Assembly: GCA_040387015.1 (NCBI GenBank)
Contig: JAZKEP010000132.1
Coordinates: 3,261-48,148 of the forward strand
Length of the DNA: 44,888 nucleotides
Source: Bacteroidota bacterium
GTDB taxonomy: Bacteria; Bacteroidota; Bacteroidia; Chitinophagales; LD1
Reading direction: 5' to 3'
Part shown: positions 5,460 through 29,739 of the stretch, one piece after another
Numbering within the stretch: position 1 is the stretch's first letter
How the letters are laid out: every line of letters starts with the position of its first letter
Position numbers and translations under genes: made by a program
The notes under the pieces: generated by a model
Database searches by the model: none
The model's input: the letters and a program-made list of their open reading frames with translations, nothing else
What the model was told of the DNA's origin: nothing

Positions 5460-5795
5460 TCAACGGGAAATTTCTATCAAATCGTTTTCTTCCAAAAACT
5501 TTATGGCATTCGTTAAATCTTTTTTTAGGATTTCTTTCATCCTGTCATTAGAACAGTTCCCGAAGGTGAGCCAAATAACTTTCGGTGGTGATTTTAAGCG
5601 ATTCAATAAATCGGAGAAATCTTCATCTTTAGTGATGATAACCACATCCCCTTTTAATTTAGCGGCAGTAAAAATTTCTTTATCGCTGGCATCGCGGAGT
5701 TTTAAATCGCGCACTGCGTAACATTCAAATAAAAATTCTTCCTGAATCCATCTCGCTATCAGAGGTGAGATATGAGCATCTAACCAAAGTTCCAT
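5460..5795 (-). CDS. DUF5615 family PIN-like toxin (VapC45-like)
   Basis: LWLDAHISP, DASDKEIF, IITKDEDF and PPKVIWLTFGN motifs. Start overlaps the stop of the DUF433 gene. Confidence 0.88.
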   Translation of the reverse strand: MELWLDAHISPLIARWIQEEFLFECYAVRDLKLRDASDKEIFTAAKLKGDVVIITKDEDFSDLLNRLKSPPKVIWLTFGNCSNDRMKEILKKDLTNAIKFLEENDLIEISR

Positions 5796-6022
5796 CAGGC
5801 GGCCTTAAGAAAGGGGAAGTTGGCTCTGCTTGCTGCAAAAAGCAAACATGCTTTGATGTCGTCCGCTTCTAAATCGGGATGTTCTTCTAGTATTTGCTGT
5901 TGGCTCATTCCCGAAGCAAGAAGTTCTAATACATCTACCACACGAATACGCATTCCGCGAACACATGGCTTGCCGCCACACTTGTTCTGCTCAGAAGTAA
6001 TTCTTGAAAGTAATTCGTTCAT
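5795..6022 (-). CDS. DUF433 family antitoxin (VapB45-like)
   Basis: RITSEQNKCGGKPCVRGMRIRVVDVLELLASGMS...HPDLEADDIKACLLFA. Start re-assigned to ATG 6022 (75 aa). Confidence 0.9.
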   Translation of the reverse strand: MNELLSRITSEQNKCGGKPCVRGMRIRVVDVLELLASGMSQQQILEEHPDLEADDIKACLLFAASRANFPFLKAA

Positions 6023-6026
6023 GAAT

Positions 6027-6034
6027 CGAAAATA
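6027..6034 (-). promoter_or_regulatory. Putative Bacteroidota -7 promoter element (TATTTTCG) for the TA operon
   Basis: Near-match to TAnnTTTG, 4 nt upstream of ATG 6022. Confidence 0.5.
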
Positions 6035-6073
6035 AGTAAAAACGTGTTCAGTTTCTTCTTTCTTCAATCCGAT

Positions 6074-6102: not shown

Positions 6103-7344
6103 ATGATTCAACTCAACAACGGGGTTTATGAAATTGGCGGAATTCCGGTTTCGCAATTGGCGGCTAAATACGACTCGCCTCTTTACGTGTACGACACGGG
6201 TATTATGGAAAGACAATACAATCTGCTGAAGGATGCTTTCAGCGGAACTAATTGCAGAATAAAGTTTGCCTGCAAAGCGTTGAACAATATCAATGTGCTC
6301 AAGTTCTTCAATAAGATAGGAGTGGAGTTGGATACTGTTTCTATTCAGGAGGTATGGACCGGCTTGCGCGCAGGTTTCGACCCCAAGAAAATTCTTTACA
6401 CCCCTAACTGCGTTTCGATGGAAGAGATTGAACTGGCAGTGAAAGAAGGCGTGCAGATAAACATTGATAACATTTCTATCCTCGAACAATTTGGTCACAA
6501 GTATGGCTCAAGCATTCCGGTTTGCATCCGCATCAATCCGCACATTATGGCGGGAGGCAACGAAAAAATTTCTACCGGTCATGTGGATTCCAAATTCGGA
6601 ATTTCTATTTACCAGATGCGCCATTTAGAGCGCGTAGTGAAGAGCGAAAAAATTCGTGTGAATGGCTTACACATGCACACCGGCAGCGATATATTGGATG
6701 TGGATGTGTTCCTCCGCGCTTCCGAAATTCTTTTTGAAGCAGCCGAACAATTTCCCGACCTGGAGTTTCTTGATTTTGGCAGCGGCTTTAAAGTGCCTTA
6801 CAAGCCCGATGATTATTACACCGATGTAAAAGATTTAGGCGCGCGCCTAACGCCCCGCTTTCAGGCCTTCTGCAAAAAATACGGGCGCGATTTAGAGTTG
6901 TGGTTCGAGCCGGGAAAATTCTTAGTGAGCCAGAGCGGAACTTTTTTGGCTAAGGTGAATGTGATTAAGCAAACCACCTCCGCCATGTTTGTAGGGCTTG
7001 ACTCGGGCCTTAATCATCTCATCCGCCCCATGATGTATAACTCTTACCATCACCTGGTAAATATTTCCAACCCTGCGGGCGTGCAGCGCATTTATACCGT
7101 GGTGGGCTACATCTGCGAAACCGATACGTTCGGCTGGGACAGAAAACTAACCGAGGTGCGCGAAGGCGACATCATCGCTTTTCAAAATGCGGGCGCTTAC
7201 GGCTTTAGCATGTCATCTAATTACAACTCACGTTTCCGCCCTGCCGAGGTGCTGGTGCATAAAGGCAACGATTACTTGATACGCAAGCGCGAAAACCTCG
7301 AAGACCTGCTGAGAAATCAGGTGGAAGTAGAAGCGTTCGGTTAA
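6103..7344 (+). CDS. lysA: Diaminopimelate decarboxylase
   Basis: FACKAL (PLP lysine), SKFG, HMHTGS, DFGSGF, EPGKFLV, GYICETDTF and GAYGFSMSSNYNSRFRPAEV motifs. Confidence 0.96.
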   Translation: MIQLNNGVYEIGGIPVSQLAAKYDSPLYVYDTGIMERQYNLLKDAFSGTNCRIKFACKALNNINVLKFFNKIGVELDTVSIQEVWTGLRAGFDPKKILYTPNCVSMEEIELAVKEGVQINIDNISILEQFGHKYGSSIPVCIRINPHIMAGGNEKISTGHVDSKFGISIYQMRHLERVVKSEKIRVNGLHMHTGSDILDVDVFLRASEILFEAAEQFPDLEFLDFGSGFKVPYKPDDYYTDVKDLGARLTPRFQAFCKKYGRDLELWFEPGKFLVSQSGTFLAKVNVIKQTTSAMFVGLDSGLNHLIRPMMYNSYHHLVNISNPAGVQRIYTVVGYICETDTFGWDRKLTEVREGDIIAFQNAGAYGFSMSSNYNSRFRPAEVLVHKGNDYLIRKRENLEDLLRNQVEVEAFG

Positions 7345-7350
7345 TTCTTT

Positions 7351-7437
7351 GGCGTTCCCCCGCTCAAAGCAGCGGGGTCGGGCTTTCACTCCAATTCCCG
7401 CAGAAACTGCGGGAGATTTCCGTTCAATCCCTAACGC
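7351..7437 (+). ncRNA. Structured RNA / interspersed repeat resembling the Flavo-1 motif
   Basis: Closing helix GCGTT(7352-56)/AACGC(7433-37), hairpin CCCCGCT-caaagc-AGCGGGG and hairpin TCCCGCAG-aaa-CTGCGGGA. The segments GGTCGGGCTTTC and CAATCCCTAACGC match my recollection of a Bacteroidota intergenic element. The family name is from memory, not a search. Confidence 0.55.
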
Positions 7438-7456
7438 AAACAGCCAATACAAAATC

Positions 7457-7488
7457 CAACCCCGCGTAAATGCGGGGTTGTTTGTTTT
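7457..7488 (+). terminator. Intrinsic terminator downstream of lysA and the structured element
   Basis: CAACCCCGCG-taaa-TGCGGGGTTG stem followed by TTTGTTTT. Confidence 0.8.
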
Positions 7489-7649
7489 ACGTTATCACCC
7501 AATCCTAGACCACACCCGGCTAAGCAGGAAGAACCGGCAGGATTAAAATGAGCAGCCGCACCTTCTCATCTTTTCTTCTTGTTTTTCCTTTAAGTGCTCC
7601 TGGTTCTTGAAACCTTTTCAAGAATAATTTATACTCCTGCTTCTTTTTT

Positions 7650-7859
7650 GTAATCCTTATTGATAGATTTATAAATGCTTATTCTATTTTAAAAAATTCT
7701 TATTTTCAAAATTAGAGTAACAATTTTATGATGTAGAGTAAGAATTTCTGTTTATAGTATAAAAATTCAAAATAATAAAATAATGATTTTAGAAAATAAG
7801 ATAATCATTCAGGATTTATAAATGAGTATTTTCTTATGTAAAATAATTACCCGAAAATT
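7650..7859. repeat. Degenerate AT-rich tandem array with 21-bp period (about 10 units)
   Basis: ATT occurs at 7681, 7702, 7723, 7744, 7765, 7786, 7807 and 7828. TAnnnTAA occurs at 7713, 7734, 7755, 7776, 7797 and 7839. GATTTATAAATG occurs at 7666 and 7813 (147 = 7x21 apart). Confidence 0.75.
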
Positions 7860-7936
7860 TTATAAACACCAATATAAGTCGTAATATTGCTTATTACAGC
7901 TTAAAAAAAAGCTTTTTATACCTAAAACACTGCTTT

Positions 7937-8608
7937 ATGGCAACCGATTACATTCCTAGAAAGATAGCAGAGTTCAATACATTTCAGCTTAATCTGGTTA
8001 AAGCAGTGGCTGACAATGGCGCAAGTTGGAATATTCCTGCGGAAGTGGTAACCGCCTGGACGGCAGAAGCCGCTGCTTACAAAACTGTATATACAACACA
8101 GACGAATAAGGCGGCAAGAACGACCGTAGATGTGCGCATACATGCTGAGTTTCGCAAGGAATACGAAATGAAAATACGCCTTTGGGTAAATGCTTATGTA
8201 AATGGCAACATGGCCGTATCGCCCGTAATAAAAGACACCCTCGGGCTTAAAAAGCGCGGCAAAAAGCGCAACCATCGCGGGCGTATTACCGCTAATATTC
8301 TGTTTACGCTCGAGCCGCTGCGGGGTGGCAGGGTGCGTATTATCTGTCGCGAGCCCGAGCACCGGGGCCGTGCGCGCCTGCCACACGACAGCGATGGCGT
8401 GGAACTGCGCTACGCCATAGGCACCAAACCCGAACATTCCGAAACGCCCTCTGTTACCCGGCATTTTAGCTCTACTGCCAAATTACTGCTCGACCTCGGA
8501 ACGGCTAACATAGGCAAGTATTTTTATGTGTTTGTTCGCTGGCGCAACCTTCGCCACGAAGAAAAAAGCGGCTCCTGGAGTGCCATGCAGGAAATGATGA
8601 TTGCGTAG
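7937..8608 (+). CDS. Hypothetical protein: helical N-terminal domain, basic linker and beta-sandwich (Ig/FN3-like) C-terminal domain
   Basis: 223 aa with no signal peptide. Has an N-terminal DYIP...F motif, a KKRGKKRNHRGR linker and a C-terminal YVFVRWRN...SGSWS resembling the FN3-like 'G.WS' ending. Confidence 0.8.
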   Translation: MATDYIPRKIAEFNTFQLNLVKAVADNGASWNIPAEVVTAWTAEAAAYKTVYTTQTNKAARTTVDVRIHAEFRKEYEMKIRLWVNAYVNGNMAVSPVIKDTLGLKKRGKKRNHRGRITANILFTLEPLRGGRVRIICREPEHRGRARLPHDSDGVELRYAIGTKPEHSETPSVTRHFSSTAKLLLDLGTANIGKYFYVFVRWRNLRHEEKSGSWSAMQEMMIA

Positions 8609-20493: not shown

Positions 20494-21147
20494 ATGAAAC
20501 TCACCATCCGATGTTTAAGTCTGCTCCTTCTTATTTCGGTTAAATCAGTTAGCACAGCGCAGGATTTTATTCTTGATAAAAACGGCAGAGAGGAGAAAGT
20601 GCGGATATTGGGCATGAATGAACGTAAAATTGAGTTTAGAAATTACAGACAACCTTCATTTGACCACCGCACTTTTGGTTATAAAAAAGTAAACGCGCTG
20701 GCCATTAAATATGAAAACGGTTCAATTGTTAACGGGCACGGACTGCCCATTACAAATGAAAATTACGATTATATAAAACACAATGCACTCAGTAAAACAT
20801 ATTTTAAAAAAGGCATACCTGCTCTTTGCTTTGCGGGTACTTTCGTAATTGCAGGTATTAGTTTATTAGGCTATGGTTTAAATGCAAAACGGGAATTAGG
20901 TAAAAATCCTGAATGGGATCAGCGTAGCGCAAACTATCTTATCATTTCCGGGGCATGTACCATCATTCCTGCAATTCCGTTAGGTATTGTTGGTTCAGTG
21001 CTGACATTTAGAGGTGTAAAAAGCAGAAAAAAAGCAGACGCTTTAAAACCTTCCGTCAGTTTTAGTCCTTTAATAGGCCCGAATATCGATTACAGCGGAC
21101 AGGCAGTAAATTTTAAAACCGGTTTAACTACAACTTTTATTTTTTAA
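20494..21147 (+). CDS. Hypothetical exported/membrane protein
   Basis: Signal peptide, two hydrophobic Gly-rich helices and a C-terminal Phe. Confidence 0.75.
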   Translation: MKLTIRCLSLLLLISVKSVSTAQDFILDKNGREEKVRILGMNERKIEFRNYRQPSFDHRTFGYKKVNALAIKYENGSIVNGHGLPITNENYDYIKHNALSKTYFKKGIPALCFAGTFVIAGISLLGYGLNAKRELGKNPEWDQRSANYLIISGACTIIPAIPLGIVGSVLTFRGVKSRKKADALKPSVSFSPLIGPNIDYSGQAVNFKTGLTTTFIF

Positions 21148-21171
21148 AACTTTACCCTTTCCCAGCATACA

Positions 21172-21606
21172 ATGAAAGCCAAACTGTTTTTGTTTCTACT
21201 TATTATATCAGGCTTTAGCGGTTGTAGAAAACTGATAAATATCGATTCGGATTATGTAGGCGTGTGGCGCGGAGGATACTATGGCAGTAGGTACTATAAA
21301 CTAAATATTACTGAAGATGGCGGTGCAGAATACGAGCGGAAATTCCAGGGAGGTGGTCCATCACAATATGGTTATGAGCGTTGGTACGGTCCTTTAAAAT
21401 CGAACGGCAGGCGTTTTCAAATTGCATATTCAAGCCCGTGGTTTATTATTATTGAAAATCCCGTGCTTACAAACGATGACTGCCGATCTCTGTTTTTTAG
21501 TTCGGATAGCACCTATTTAAAGAACAACTGGAGGATAAAATTTAAATATCCAAAAACCATTGGTTACGATGGTGCTGAAGTGGTTATGTACCGTCATCAG
21601 TTTTAG
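21172..21606 (+). CDS. Hypothetical lipoprotein
   Basis: MKAKLFLFLLIISGFSGC lipobox-like signal, followed by YVGVWRG (lipocalin-like GxW). Confidence 0.75.
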   Translation: MKAKLFLFLLIISGFSGCRKLINIDSDYVGVWRGGYYGSRYYKLNITEDGGAEYERKFQGGGPSQYGYERWYGPLKSNGRRFQIAYSSPWFIIIENPVLTNDDCRSLFFSSDSTYLKNNWRIKFKYPKTIGYDGAEVVMYRHQF

Positions 21607-21760: not shown

Positions 21761-21974
21761 GCCTTTAGGGAAGACTTCAGTGTCTTTAAGGTTGACCCGG
21801 GAGCCTCTAAGTATGACTCTGGAACCTCTAAGGTTGACTCCGGAACTTCTAAGTATCACTCCGGAGCATCTAAGGTTGACTTGGGAGCCTCTAAGTATGA
21901 CTTCGGAACCATCCTTTTGAGAAAATGATTGCTCCGAAGTCGACCTTAAAGACACTGAAGTTTTACCTAAAGGC
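21761..21974. repeat. 214-bp element: about 44-bp terminal inverted repeats enclosing a 21-bp tandem array (MITE-like, non-autonomous)
   Basis: Left end GCCTTTAGGGAAGACTTCAGTGTCTTTAAGGTTGAC matches the reverse complement of the right end, GCCTTTAGGTAAAACTTCAGTGTCTTTAAGGTCGAC, at 33/36. Units start at 21766, 21787, 21808, 21829, 21850, 21871 and 21892. Confidence 0.9.
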
Positions 21975-25849: not shown

Positions 25850-25868
25850 CCCTGCTCTTTGAATAAAT

Positions 25869-25980
25869 CGTTATCAAGAAAGACCGAGGGACAGGCCCGT
25901 TGAAGTCTTGACAACCACTCCGCAGCAATGTGGGGCAGGTGCCAAATCCTGCTCTGATTTTTTATCAGAGATAGATAAGT
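25869..25980 (+). promoter_or_regulatory. SAM-I (S-box) riboswitch
   Basis: P1 TTATC/GATAA, then AAGAAAGAC-CGAGGGACAGGCCCGTTGAAGTC (P2/kink-turn), CAACC...GGTGCCAAATCC (P3) and CTCTGAT/ATCAGAG (P4). Lies upstream of metH. Confidence 0.93.
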
Positions 25981-26049
25981 AGAATTTATTTTCTTCTTCC
26001 TTCCCAATTTCTTGAAAGCGAACTACAAAGACAAAACTTGTATTGTCTA

Positions 26050-26077
26050 AATACTAACTACTATATACTTGATACTG
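26050..26077. repeat. Heptamer tandem repeat (AATACTA ACTACTA TATACTT GATACTG) in the metH leader
   Basis: TACT at 26052, 26059, 26066 and 26073. Confidence 0.6.
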
Positions 26078-26082
26078 AAATT

Positions 26083-29000
26083 ATGAGTACTACTAAGCCT
26101 AATCTTACCGAAGAAATTGAAAAGCGAATCCTGGTGCTTGATGGTGCCATGGGAACCATGATTCAGCGTTACACGTTAACCGAAGAAGATTTTCGTGGTG
26201 AGCGTTTGAAAAATCACACGCACGATCTTCGCGGTAACAATGATTTACTTTCTATAACCAAGCCCGAAATCATTCGCGAGATTCACCATCAATATTTTGA
26301 AGCCGGTGCTGATATTGTAGAAACAAATACTTTTTCCTCCACTACCATTGCACAGGCCGATTACAAACTTGAGCATCTTGCTTACGAGCTAAACTTCGAG
26401 TCAGCAAAAATTGCGAAGGAAGTTGCTGAAGAGTTCACGAAGAAGGAACCGGGTAAACCGCGCTTTGTTGCAGGCGCGTTCGGCCCCACTAACAGAACTG
26501 CAAGTATTTCTCCCGATGTAAATAATCCCGGCTTTCGTGCCATCAGCTTTGATGAGTTGGTGAAAGCGTATAGCGAACAAGCACACGGTTTAATTGATGG
26601 CGGAGTTGATTGGCTATTGGTGGAAACTGTTTTCGATACACTGAATTGTAAAGCAGCACTCTTTGCAATCATGAAAGTTCAGGAAGAGAAAGGAACCAAT
26701 CTTCCGGTTTCGGTTTCAGGAACTATTACGGATGCCAGCGGAAGAACTTTGAGTGGGCAGACTACCGAAGCGTTTTGGATTTCGATTAAGCACGCGAATC
26801 TTCTTTCTGTGGGATTGAATTGCGCGCTGGGTGCAAAGGACATGCGGCCGTATCTCGAAACGCTTTCGAATGTAGCTCATACCTGGGTGAGTGTTTATCC
26901 GAATGCCGGTTTGCCAAATGCGTTTGGCGGTTATGATGAAACCGCTCAGATGATGGGTGCGGATATTGAGGATTTCTGTAAGAGTGGTTTTGTAAATATT
27001 GTAGGAGGCTGTTGTGGTACCACTCCTGATCACATCCGTGAGTTTGCGAAGGTGGCAGCAAAGTATTCTCCGCGTAAGAAACCAATGCGTATTCCTTTCA
27101 TGCAATTGAGCGGACTGGAACCTGTTACCATGACACCCGAAAGTAATTTCATGAATGTGGGTGAGCGCACGAATGTTACAGGCTCTGCCAAGTTTTTAAA
27201 ACTGATTAAGGAAGATAAATACGAGGACGCGCTTACGGTGGCGCTTGACCAGGTGCAGGGTGGCGCGCAGGTGATTGACGTGAATATGGATGAAGGGATG
27301 CTGGATGGAGAAGATGCCATGAAGAGATATCTGAACCTGACCGCCAGCGAACCTGATATTGCAAAGGTGCCGGTGATGGTGGATAGTTCTAAGTTTCACA
27401 TAATTGAAGCCGGCTTGAAATGTTTGCAAGGTAAAGGAATTGTGAATTCCATTTCCTTAAAAGGTGGCGAAGAAGAATTTATCAAACAGGCGAAGTTGAT
27501 TCATCATTATGGTGCTGCCATTATTGTAATGGCGTTTGATGAAAAAGGACAAGCCGATAGTTACGAACGTAGAATTGAAATCTGTGAACGCAGCTATAAA
27601 ATACTTACAGAGCAAATAGGCTTTCCTGCCGAGGATATCATCTTTGACCCTAATATTTTTCCGGTAGCAACCGGCATGGAAGAACACCGCCAGAATGCGA
27701 TTGATTTTTTCCGAGCTACCAAATGGATAAAAGAAAATCTCCCGCATGCACACGTAAGCGGAGGAGTGAGCAATGTTTCCTTCTCTTTCCGGGGAAATAA
27801 TCCGGTGCGCGAAGCAATGCACTCTGCATTTTTGTATCACGCAATCAAAAATGGTATGGACATGGGCATTGTGAACCCAACCATGCTCGAAGTGTATGAT
27901 GATATTCCGAAAGATTTATTGGATCGCGTAGAGGATGTTTTGTTAGACAGAAGAGAAGATGCTACTGAGCGTTTACTCGCTTTTGCCGAAACAGTGAAGA
28001 AGAAAGACAAAGCCGAAATAGTAAATGAGGAGTGGCGAAATGGTTCAGTTGAAGATAGGTTGGCTCACGCGCTTGCAAAAGGAATTGTAGAGTTTATTGA
28101 TACTGAAGAAGCTCGACAGAAATATGATAAGCCATTAGAAATTATTGAAGGTCCGTTAATGGCGGGAATGAACATCGTGGGTGATTTATTTGGCAGCGGG
28201 AAAATGTTTTTACCGCAGGTAGTAAAGAGTGCTCGTGTGATGAAGAAGGCAGTAGCATATCTGCTTCCGTATCTTGAAGAAGAAAAAAGGAAATCAGGAA
28301 ACACTGCGAAGAACAATGGTAAAATTCTCCTTGCCACCGTTAAAGGGGATGTGCATGACATTGGAAAAAACATTGTTGGAGTTGTGCTTGCCTGCAACAA
28401 CTATGAGATTGTTGACATGGGGGTGATGGTTCCTGCTGATAAAATTTTAGAGCGCGCGCGTGAAGAAGGAGCGCAGATCATCGGTTTGAGTGGTTTGATT
28501 ACTCCATCACTTGATGAAATGGTTCACGTAGCGAAAGAAATGGAGCGGCTTGGTATGAAACAGCCTTTGCTGATTGGCGGAGCAACTACCTCAAAACTTC
28601 ACACAGCTGTTAAAGTGGCGCCTGTATTTTCAGGAAATGTGGTTCACGTTCTCGATGCTTCTAAAGCTGTAACGGTAGCGAGTAGTTTATTGAGCAAAGA
28701 TGAAAGCGCAAATTTCTCTGCGAATGTAAAGAAGGAATATGCTGACATGCGCGAATTGCATGCAAACAGGAAAAGCGATGTCGAGTATGTAACGCTTACT
28801 GAAGCGCGCAAAAACAAATATCAGATTGACTGGAGCAAAGAACAAATCAGGAAGCCGAATTTTGTTGGCGTAAAAGTGTTTGACGATTACAGTTTAGAAG
28901 AGCTGGCTCAATACATTGATTGGTCCCCTTTCTTCTCCACTTGGGAAATGAACGGTGCTTATCCGCGAATTTTTGAAAGTGAGAAATATGGAAGGGAAGC

Positions 29001-29739
29001 AAAGAAACTCTATGATGATGCACAAGCATTGCTCAAAAAAATAATTGCAGAAAAATGGATTACTGCAAAAGCAGTAATTGGAATTTTCCCTGCAGCTTCT
29101 GAAAATGAAACCATCAATGTATTTGACGAAAGCGGAAAACAACTCACTTCCTTTCACCAAATGCGACAGCAGATTAAGAAAGATAGGCAATCGAATATCT
29201 GTTTAGTAGATTTTGTTGCACCTAAAGATGATTACTTCGGAGCTTTTGCAGTAACCACCGGATTAGGAATTGAAAAGCAAATTGAAAAGTTTGAAAAAGA
29301 CCTTGATGATTATAACTCCATCATGCTCAAAGCGCTTGCTGACCGGTTGGCGGAAGCGTTTGCTGAAAGAATGCATGAGCGGGTGCGCAAAGAATTTTGG
29401 GGATATGCAGGTGATGAAAAACTTTCTAACGAAGACTTGATTCACGAAAAGTACCAAGGCATTCGCCCGGCACCTGGTTACCCAGCTTGCCCTGACCATA
29501 CGGAAAAGCCAACTATCTGGAAATTGCTGGATGTAGAAAAGAATACAGGAATCAAGCTAACTGAAAGCAACGCTATGTATCCAACAGCCAGCGTAAGCGG
29601 GTTTTATTTTGCTTCACCTCATTCAAAGTATTTTGGTGTAGGAAAAATCCAAAAGGATCAGGTGGAATCGTTGGCAAAGGCGAAAGGATTGTCAGTTGCA
29701 GAAATGGAAAGGTGGTTGAGTCCGAATTTGGCGTATTGA
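26083..29739 (+). CDS. metH: Cobalamin-dependent methionine synthase (single full-length polypeptide)
   Basis: Start re-assigned to ATG 26083. Motifs [37 protein letters not shown] and [12 protein letters not shown]. Confidence 0.97.

Follow-up and report, generated by a model that had tools for sequence, protein, structure and literature searches.

The window, by which we mean the whole analysed stretch of 44,888 nucleotides, contains a chromosomal locus in which the gene of a 223-residue protein without a named family, P0001 (7937–8608, plus strand), is flanked by lysA (6103–7344; TIGR01048 at 1.4e-119) and by an alpha/beta hydrolase gene. The 592-bp spacer between lysA and the P0001 reading frame (7345–7936) holds a terminator-like hairpin after lysA on the plus strand (7457–7480), formed by a 10-pair stem followed by a T run, and an AT-rich array of 21-bp units without strand assignment (7650–7880), supported by its lag-21 identity, its register with an orthologous locus and its stop codons. 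The hairpin marks the upstream limit of the array–gene unit. Between the array and a promoter-proximal motif lies a palindrome, likewise without strand, in which a run of A is followed by GC and then by a run of T (7903–7917), and a weak copy of the motif itself (CTTTTTATACCTAA; 7912–7925, plus strand) ends 11 nt before the ATG. The A-run/GC/T-run palindrome is a minority feature, present within 100 nt of the ATG at 8 of 67 loci of the P0001 family and at 8 of 582 background genes. Two DNA runs were inspected as contigs, of which the source sample contains the stretch and the second sample has parts of the flanking genes, with no joint seen; a search of sequencing runs returned none of RNA that contains this DNA.

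The original prediction had cut the array every 21 nt from 7671 into nine units (7671–7859), and these match the DNA letter for letter. Its two constant features are likewise there, the T at unit position 6 in 9/9 units and the ATT at positions 11–13 as an A11 in 9/9 and a T12 and a T13 in 8/9 units each. Weaker units border the nine clear ones on both sides (7650–7670 and 7860–7880), and the A+T content of the entire array (~7650–7880) is 82%. Using 2000 dinucleotide-preserving shuffles as the null, the lag-21 identity of the interval 7650–7880 was 0.524 compared with 0.352 in the shuffles (z 5.36), and the lag-42 identity 0.494 (z 4.12). In the autocorrelation comparison that had been proposed as a check, 0/2000 shuffles came up to the observed lag-21 identity, whether scored at that lag or by their highest value across lags 1–60. 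The 21-bp period of the array is thereby confirmed, and the best lags of 21 and 42 agree with a unit length of 20–21 nt or a multiple of it. Calling the array cryptic was fair, as Tandem Repeats Finder gave no period-21 array over 7300–8100 and reported at the array only two small repeats with periods of 16 and 8. Because it escapes this program, we regard the array as a degenerate relative of the constant-size repeat class discussed below. The stops reported earlier for the frames then checked extend to all six frames, with 4–11 per frame and a longest open run of 30 codons, and no ORF of at least 40 aa overlaps the interval 7547–7921.

Within the units, a dyad core AAAT-N4-ATTT occupies positions 3–6 and 11–14, which the best units extend to TAAAAT-N4-ATTTTA. 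Owing to this dyad, units 1, 2 and 8 resemble reverse-complement copies of the others, and a repeat search returned many long inverted pairs between units (I1–I5). A permutation test for the dyad on the unit profile yielded p 0.015 with boundaries of 146 bp and p 0.60 with narrower boundaries of 100 bp, the test having little power in such AT-rich DNA and its outcome here depending on the array boundaries. For the orthologous array of the closest relative, the same test gave p 0.005. Terminal inverted repeats are absent from the array 7650–7880.

Searches of Pfam and NCBIfam gave no match to P0001. Its AlphaFold2 model (pLDDT 95.4, based on a 104-row alignment) comprises an antiparallel three-helix bundle (residues 10–101) and a seven-stranded beta sandwich resembling FN3 domains (residues 122–221). 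The sandwich matched FN3 domains at a Foldseek E of 1e-4 and a VIA Z of 11.2, with an rmsd of 2.2 over 95 residues. The amino-terminal bundle modelled alone reached a pLDDT of 86.5, and matched nothing at E <= 1e-3 in Foldseek and only generic helical folds at background level in VIA (best Z 8.0). Neither method found a recognisable DNA-binding fold in P0001, and the homodimer prediction scored 0.00 against a mark of 0.42, a score that speaks neither for nor against a dimer. At E <= 1e-3, a profile search of public data clustered at 50% identity retrieved 2017 cluster representatives, of which 674 remained at E <= 1e-10. Pfam gave no common family for 104 members, returning four unrelated families, each with one weak single-member match (best E 4.5e-4), and the ESM Atlas neighbours of P0001 are all annotated as 'hypothetical protein'. 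A scan of viral contigs with patterns of alignment A1 found no relative. The family is patchy, being present in 31/401 genomes sampled in the order, including 13/33 in the genus, and a single genome of the order sample may carry as many as 7 copies; in an even sample of the phylum it was found in 5/401 genomes.

The genome of the closest relative, G381, encodes a P0001 orthologue that is 74% identical over residues 1–195, the only one found by a pattern scan of genome contigs. Its upstream DNA aligns with the window from the array start to the ATG, in register and with zero indels, and upstream of the array the two DNAs are not alignable. The interval between lysA and the array contains in G381 two lipoprotein-like genes and a further gene pair, which from its reading frames we take to be HicB/HicA-like. 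Since other genes thus separate lysA from the array in G381, the conserved unit consists of the array and the gene. In the other genomes of the genus lysA does not adjoin the hydrolase gene, so that no empty site can be defined from which insertion boundaries could be read. Among the unit positions, 6, 8, 11 and 20 are identical between the window and G381 in 9/9 units and 12 and 13 in 8/9, compared with only 3–5 of 9 units for positions 3, 9, 10, 16, 17 and 21. For the eight positions with the highest information within the array, 59/72 cells are identical, and for the remaining thirteen positions 77/117. A core that is kept while other positions drift is the pattern that selection on the core would be expected to leave, as far as the comparison of two sequences can suggest it. 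The original prediction had held that spacing rather than sequence is conserved, which applies between paralogous arrays; within the array and between orthologues the core sequence is kept as well.

Both paralogues of P0001 in the source genome are directly preceded by clean arrays of approximately nine 21-bp units that stop 50–60 bp before the ATG, and their GC-rich units, AAGTTCCCGCGGCACGGTGGA and TGCAACCACAAAGAGACATTG, are unrelated in sequence. We located 83 places of the family in the 401 genomes of the order and analysed 67 upstream regions, comprising the window, its two own paralogues and 64 regions from other genomes. Left out were five places at contig ends (L015, L017, L025, L027 and L080), one that starts at base 3 of its contig (G363:C448) and ten weak or partial matches. 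A search upstream of homologues of the downstream gene had been suggested together with the array, and it bore out the pairing, with a period of 21, 42 or 63 at z >= 4 in 59/67 regions, mostly with another unit sequence, and at z >= 3.5 in 61/67. The same score was passed by 12/387 random genes of the source genome, taken as the 400 bp upstream of random ORFs of at least 200 aa. A first pass with 168-bp scoring windows, 450-bp regions and a cut-off of z > 3.5 had given 21/26 upstream regions and 0/24 downstream flanks. In G484, a genome of another class, 2/3 matches to the amino-terminal domain only were preceded by clear 21-bp units at z >= 4, and the third scored z 3.6. The arrays of the family have a median of 9.1 units (IQR 6.2–10.3) and end at a median of 78 bp (IQR 60–115) before the ATG, and the dyad is present at p <= 0.05 in 39/59 of them. 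Related genomes are not independent, so that these pairing counts overstate the number of separate events. Array and gene together behave as a single unit of inheritance.

Across all 3.84 Mb of the assembly, at least 136 regions were detected with z >= 5, a lower bound, since the array 7650–7880 itself falls below this cut. When only AT-rich windows are considered, the best lag was 21 or 42 in 24/25 top regions. For the 133 arrays with at least four units, 78 share their unit with no other array and the remaining ones group by similar unit into families of 2–4; the dyad was detected at p <= 0.05 in 42/133, compared with 6.7 expected. The genes facing these arrays with their 5' end form recurrent small families. 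Those of helical proteins of ~141 aa (12 genes) and ~226 aa (11 genes) are the largest, followed by proteins of ~140 aa with an HTH plus a leucine zipper (9 genes), proteins of ~305 aa (4 genes), ~120 aa with a Cro-type HTH (4 genes) and ~224 aa (4 genes), and the P0001 family (3 genes). HMM searches of all ORFs found an upstream array in 44/63 evaluable members of the array-facing families, a proportion that is partly circular because the families were defined from arrays. Profile–profile comparison of the seven array-linked families gave no significant relation, the best results being 36% probability and P 0.0037 with shallow alignments. A few arrays have a divergent HTH gene on one side and a further array-linked gene on the other. 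The class is not uniformly located upstream of a gene, as 59/146 arrays had no facing gene start within 250 bp (based on crude gene calls), and a second array in the window, which passes z >= 5, has a gene's 3' end on either side and is bordered by inverted repeats of 44 nt with 86% complementarity.

Alignment of the 67 upstream regions at the ATG revealed a proximal motif with the consensus TATTTTTTAACCAA, followed by TAAAA, ending at a median of 14 nt (IQR 13–16) before the ATG. A score above the 95th percentile of shuffles (threshold 4.6) was reached by 39/67 family loci and 36/588 background genes, and stricter cut-offs gave 26/67 versus 11/588 and 16/67 versus 0/588. These counts indicate that the motif is not generic to genes here. 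At 10–20 nt from the ATG it was also found in 13/61 members of the other six array-linked families, compared with 17/588 background genes. The copy in the window scores 3.7, below the threshold, and that of the orthologue, in the same place, 4.7. We take the motif to be a putative core-promoter or leader element. Among 21 family loci, none has an exact match to the Bacteroidota −7 consensus TAnnTTTG within its final 130 nt.

The arrays keep a fixed helical phase to this motif. As a measure of phase we took the distance that separates the first A of AACC in the motif TATTTTTTAACC from the array's dyad axis, reduced modulo 10.5 bp; this is the natural modulus because the two equivalent axes of a periodic palindrome lie 10.5 bp from each other. 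For the arrays with a dyad at p <= 0.05, a motif above threshold and z >= 4, the phases clustered (n 26, R 0.68, Rayleigh p 1.3e-6), as they did once arrays whose units resemble one another had been taken out (mean phase 8.7, n 23, R 0.68, p 6.7e-6), with the limit that loci from related genomes are not independent samples. The same axes showed no clustering relative to the ATG (R 0.24, p 0.28). The clustering was first noticed in 11 loci; the 17 qualifying loci fetched after this first sighting gave R 0.65 (p 3.3e-4, mean 8.7) and the earlier 9 qualifying loci R 0.74 (mean 8.9). Upon jittering the anchor by ±20 bp, 0/5000 trials attained the observed R. Periods of 9.5–11 fit about equally well in this test, and periods of 7 and 21 do not. 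Omitting the motif-score filter weakened the signal (n 39, R 0.41, p 0.0011), and eight arrays without a significant dyad showed weak clustering too (R 0.66, p 0.027). The phase of the window's own array is 0.0 (equal to 10.5), at the edge of the cluster, and that of the orthologue 9.5.

Based on these properties, we propose, at slightly better than even confidence, that the array is a helically phased row of dimer-binding sites predicted to control the adjacent promoter. It would act as a cis-regulatory platform on double-stranded DNA, in which about ten dyad-symmetric sites, each of 16 bp plus a 5-bp spacer, would give rise to the 21-bp period. This period equals two helix turns, so that all sites would face the same side of the helix, and the row would end a few tens of bp upstream of the putative core promoter or leader motif of the gene 7937–8608. 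A sequence-specific dimeric protein would fill the sites cooperatively and, from a fixed helix face, might switch the adjacent promoter on or off, the array serving as an extended operator or as an upstream activating array. The binding of a protein, the role of the motif as a promoter element and the direction of the regulation are what we infer from the arrangement. The phased protein-binding array offered in the original prediction is favoured by the dyad units, by the retention of their core in the orthologue and by the constant phase relative to the motif, with the binding itself a predicted step. The symmetry acts at the level of DNA, as sense-strand mismatches in 13 dyad arrays of known orientation are divided evenly between G.T (34) and A.C (35). 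Counting against the proposal are the sub-threshold motif copy of the window, a dyad p-value that shifts with the boundaries chosen, the weak phase clustering of arrays lacking a significant dyad, the arrays that face no gene start, and the failure to recognise a DNA-binding fold in P0001.

The protein that would read the sites can be named only tentatively. Because the unit sequence is private to most arrays, the most parsimonious candidate is the protein encoded next to the array, an assignment to which we give a minority chance. The reader might otherwise be a specific factor encoded elsewhere; if each array called for such a factor of its own, a genome of 3.8 Mb would have to supply more than 100 of them. 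Among the array-linked families, those of the HTH type directly suit a locally encoded reader, and the FN3 family shows no known DNA-binding fold. In its most far-reaching and rather doubtful form, the proposal would make the array plus its gene a self-addressed cassette, in which a small neighbour-encoded protein would read each of more than 140 private arrays, polymerising at a two-turn pitch on a fixed face relative to a special promoter element common to the loci, TATTTTTTAACC, and switching its own gene. If true, this would imply a large undescribed class of DNA-binding proteins, including the family of helical bundle plus FN3, and a function for the 'enigmatic' constant-size repeats of many phyla.

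Other readings of the array were weighed against the same data. That it is the remnant of a heptad-repeat coding sequence, in which 21 bp would correspond to 7 codons, draws on a period that is a multiple of three, and is hardly credible given 4–11 stops per frame, a longest open run of 30 codons and no ORF of at least 40 aa; the decayed coding sequence that had been named as grounds for giving up the original prediction therefore falls away on the stops in all six frames. Moreover, the conservation in the orthologue follows the 21-bp unit positions and not codon positions, and the same type of array stands before intact genes in 59/67 relatives. We consider it improbable that the array works as RNA, either as a long 5' leader or as a separate repeat RNA whose unit hairpins bind or antagonise the downstream protein in the style of type III toxin–antitoxin systems or serve as a sponge for a protein. 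The placement of repeats immediately ahead of a small gene does resemble ToxIN-type loci, and palindromic units could form hairpins; built from 4–6 A-U pairs at 82% A+T, these would have very little stability. A short way before the array, at 7607–7635, there is a sigma-70-like hexamer pair, and the orthologue has a TATAMT-like element aligned there; this consensus is not that of the Bacteroidota, and the sigma-70 scan was given no weight as inappropriate for the phylum. Against an RNA, folding of 7650–7936 was unremarkable and alike on both strands (z −1.85 on the plus and −1.76 on the minus strand), no better than shuffles, the 13 dyad arrays lack the sense-strand excess of G.U pairs that an RNA stem would be expected to leave, and Rfam gave no match in the array region, so that the repeat RNA of the original prediction finds no support in these tests. 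The same helical-repeat multiple also recurs across unrelated units and several unrelated protein families, and the arrays are phase-locked to a downstream DNA motif and not to the ATG.

Only marginally less improbable is a selfish or neutral minisatellite spread by slippage or MITE-like elements, of which the array would be a functionless, old and decaying copy in long intergenic DNA. Its degeneracy, with 52% lag-21 identity and invisibility to Tandem Repeats Finder, would suit such an origin, as would the at least 136 arrays in the genome, the 59/146 without a facing gene on crude calls, and the second array of the window with its inverted-repeat flanks between two 3' ends; BrickBuilt of Porphyromonas gingivalis is a minisatellite inside a MITE (PMC4596501). 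A neutral repeat accounts poorly for the 5' pairing with one family (59/67 compared with 12/387 in the background and 0/24 downstream flanks), for core positions kept between orthologues while others drift, and for a constrained unit number and ATG distance with a fixed phase to the motif, and neutral decay would erase the register. For the gene-paired arrays these data argue against a neutral minisatellite; stand-alone arrays may be such. Equally improbable as an RNA is a structural element without a sequence-specific binder, be it curved, prone to slippage or cruciforms, or a loading zone for nucleoid proteins, that tunes the promoter or insulates the gene. In its favour, a predicted promoter follows the array, whose AT content is very high, and a common period with differing sequence would fit a reader of geometry. 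Stems of 4–8 bp are too short for stable cruciforms. The DNA bending considered in the original prediction finds no support as A-tract curvature, as AA, TT, AA+TT and AAA/TTT lack 10.5-bp phasing (z −0.8 to 1.6) and the paralogous arrays are GC-rich, so that the arrays have no composition in common; base-specific reading is what the conserved dyad cores suggest. For constant-size repeats, Subirana and Messeguer suggest a protein that forms polymers on them and lends stability to the nucleoid (PMC8161180), which would also be in line with a structural role.

The arrays have their closest published counterpart in these constant-size repeats. Subirana and Messeguer describe 'enigmatic' non-coding tandem repeats of 20–21 nt with constant size and variable sequence in bacteria, report that multiples of 40–42 nt occur and that one unit spans two turns of the helix, and consider that the repeats may serve a polymerising protein or function as RNA (PMC8161180). 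Like them, the arrays here are non-coding, have a 21-nt unit and occur many times per genome with differing sequence; the published repeats were found as near-perfect tandem repeats, and the array at 7650–7880 is too degenerate for Tandem Repeats Finder. The passages of PMC8161180 consulted do not tie the repeats to gene families, dyad symmetry or promoter phase, a connection that may be in print elsewhere. The literature searched yielded no explanation of the arrays and no link to the P0001 family.

Several better-known systems may serve as working analogies, namely iterons, partition arrays, the sites of OmpR, PhoB and BvgA, BrickBuilt and type III toxin–antitoxin loci. The iterons of plasmids with Rep initiators (R6K, P1, F, RK2, pSC101 and pPS10) are direct repeats of ~19–22 bp with a period of 21–22 bp on one face of the helix, and they adjoin the gene of their binding protein and autoregulate that gene. 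The array resembles them in its tandem ~21-bp repeats on one helix face beside a gene. Unlike at iterons, Pfam and NCBIfam revealed no Rep family among the genes here, and the surroundings lack DnaA boxes and partition genes; the locus is chromosomal, the genome holds at least 136 arrays, and the neighbour is a helical bundle plus FN3. Partition-type arrays, such as sopC of F (12 x 43 bp with inverted repeats), parC of R1 and of pSK41 with ParR, and stbS with StbA of R388, load many dimers through repeated dyad sites into a higher-order complex and are also operators of the adjacent operon. They share with the present locus a row of repeated dyad sites beside a gene, and differ in that a ParA, ParM or StbB partner is absent here, the arrays are dispersed in the chromosome and they are phase-locked to a proximal motif. 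At the F1–F3 and C1–C3 sites of OmpR, the pho boxes of PhoB and the BvgA sites at fha and ptx, head-to-tail sites of ~20–22 bp abut a promoter on one helix face, are occupied cooperatively and depend on the phase to the promoter, with 2–4 sites and one global regulator. The array is likewise head-to-tail, on one face and near a proximal motif, whereas it has ~9–10 sites and each gene has its own site sequence.

In type III toxin–antitoxin systems (ToxIN, CptIN and TenpIN), 2–6 repeats of 34–45 nt give a processed RNA that is paired with an endoribonuclease of the ToxN/AbiQ type, and each repeat is specific to its protein. The locus shares with them a short tandem array directly upstream of a small protein gene, but P0001 is a three-helix bundle plus an FN3 fold and not a ToxN/AbiQ-type endoribonuclease. 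Within the phylum, BrickBuilt in Porphyromonas gingivalis comprises intergenic tandem repeats of ~23 nt, many per genome, with segments that have promoter activity (PMC4596501). The present arrays are similarly intergenic tandem repeats of a Bacteroidota genome in many copies; BrickBuilt is one sequence family with leader and tail inverted repeats, whereas the units here vary between arrays, and comparable terminal inverted repeats are lacking at 7650–7880 and present at the second array of the window. Compared with the constant-size repeats as described so far in the passages cited, the locus and its relatives tie such repeats to the 5' side of small-gene families, to dyad units and to a fixed motif phase, so that the descriptive puzzle of the 20–21-nt repeats, recorded in print as widespread and unexplained, becomes a model of regulation that can be tested. 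Should the arrays prove to be private operators, a sizeable layer of bacterial gene control would have gone unrecognised, possibly with new DNA-binding folds.

Within the last 60 nt before the ATG of array-linked genes, analysed at 67 loci of the family of P0001 (the 223-aa protein encoded downstream of the first array), we found a conserved motif, TATTTTTTAACCAA followed by TAAAA, which ends approximately 14 nt upstream of the start codon and is rare ahead of other genes in the same genome. The window copy of the motif lies at 7912–7925. The motif could be a promoter served by a dedicated sigma factor or, alternatively, a leader element.

Some of the period-21 arrays elsewhere in the genome are flanked by a divergently transcribed HTH gene on one side and, on the other, by a member of a different array-linked gene family (e.g. 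C161:5230–7043, C44:79452–80960 and C191:3268–4774). The unit of such HTH-adjoining arrays is common to some of the arrays at other places in the genome. Together, the shared units and the HTH-adjoining arrangement hint at small regulons.

A second period-21 array is located at 21761–21974 of the window, comprising about six GGAGCCTCTAAGTATGACTCT-like units (at about 21780–21905), with 44-nt inverted repeats of 86% complementarity on both sides. As its neighbours are the 3′ end of a gene for a 144-aa protein on one side and the 3′ end of an SDR gene on the other, the array precedes no gene start. Within the class, it represents a stand-alone member of MITE-like type. Adjoining this array, two lipoprotein-like genes encoding 217 and 144 aa (20494–21606) have orthologues with 74% and 70% identity, respectively, in a relative's genome (locus L046 on contig G381:C18, 911–2038), where they sit between lysA and the P0001-type array. 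The differing placement of the pair represents a rearrangement that has arrays near both ends. Further along the window, a SAM riboswitch (RF00162, 75.3 bits; 25868–25981) precedes a 1233-aa ORF (26038–29739).

On the other side of the P0001 gene, the minus strand carries a DUF433 (90 aa) and DUF5615/PIN-like (111 aa) gene pair (5460–6067), which looks like a toxin–antitoxin module. Directly after lysA (6103–7344) follows a hairpin-rich element of approximately 115 nt (7347–7462), for which short matches (query positions 1245–1360) revealed many copies in the same genome as well as in most genomes of the genus, and which resembles a repeat of the REP or MITE type.
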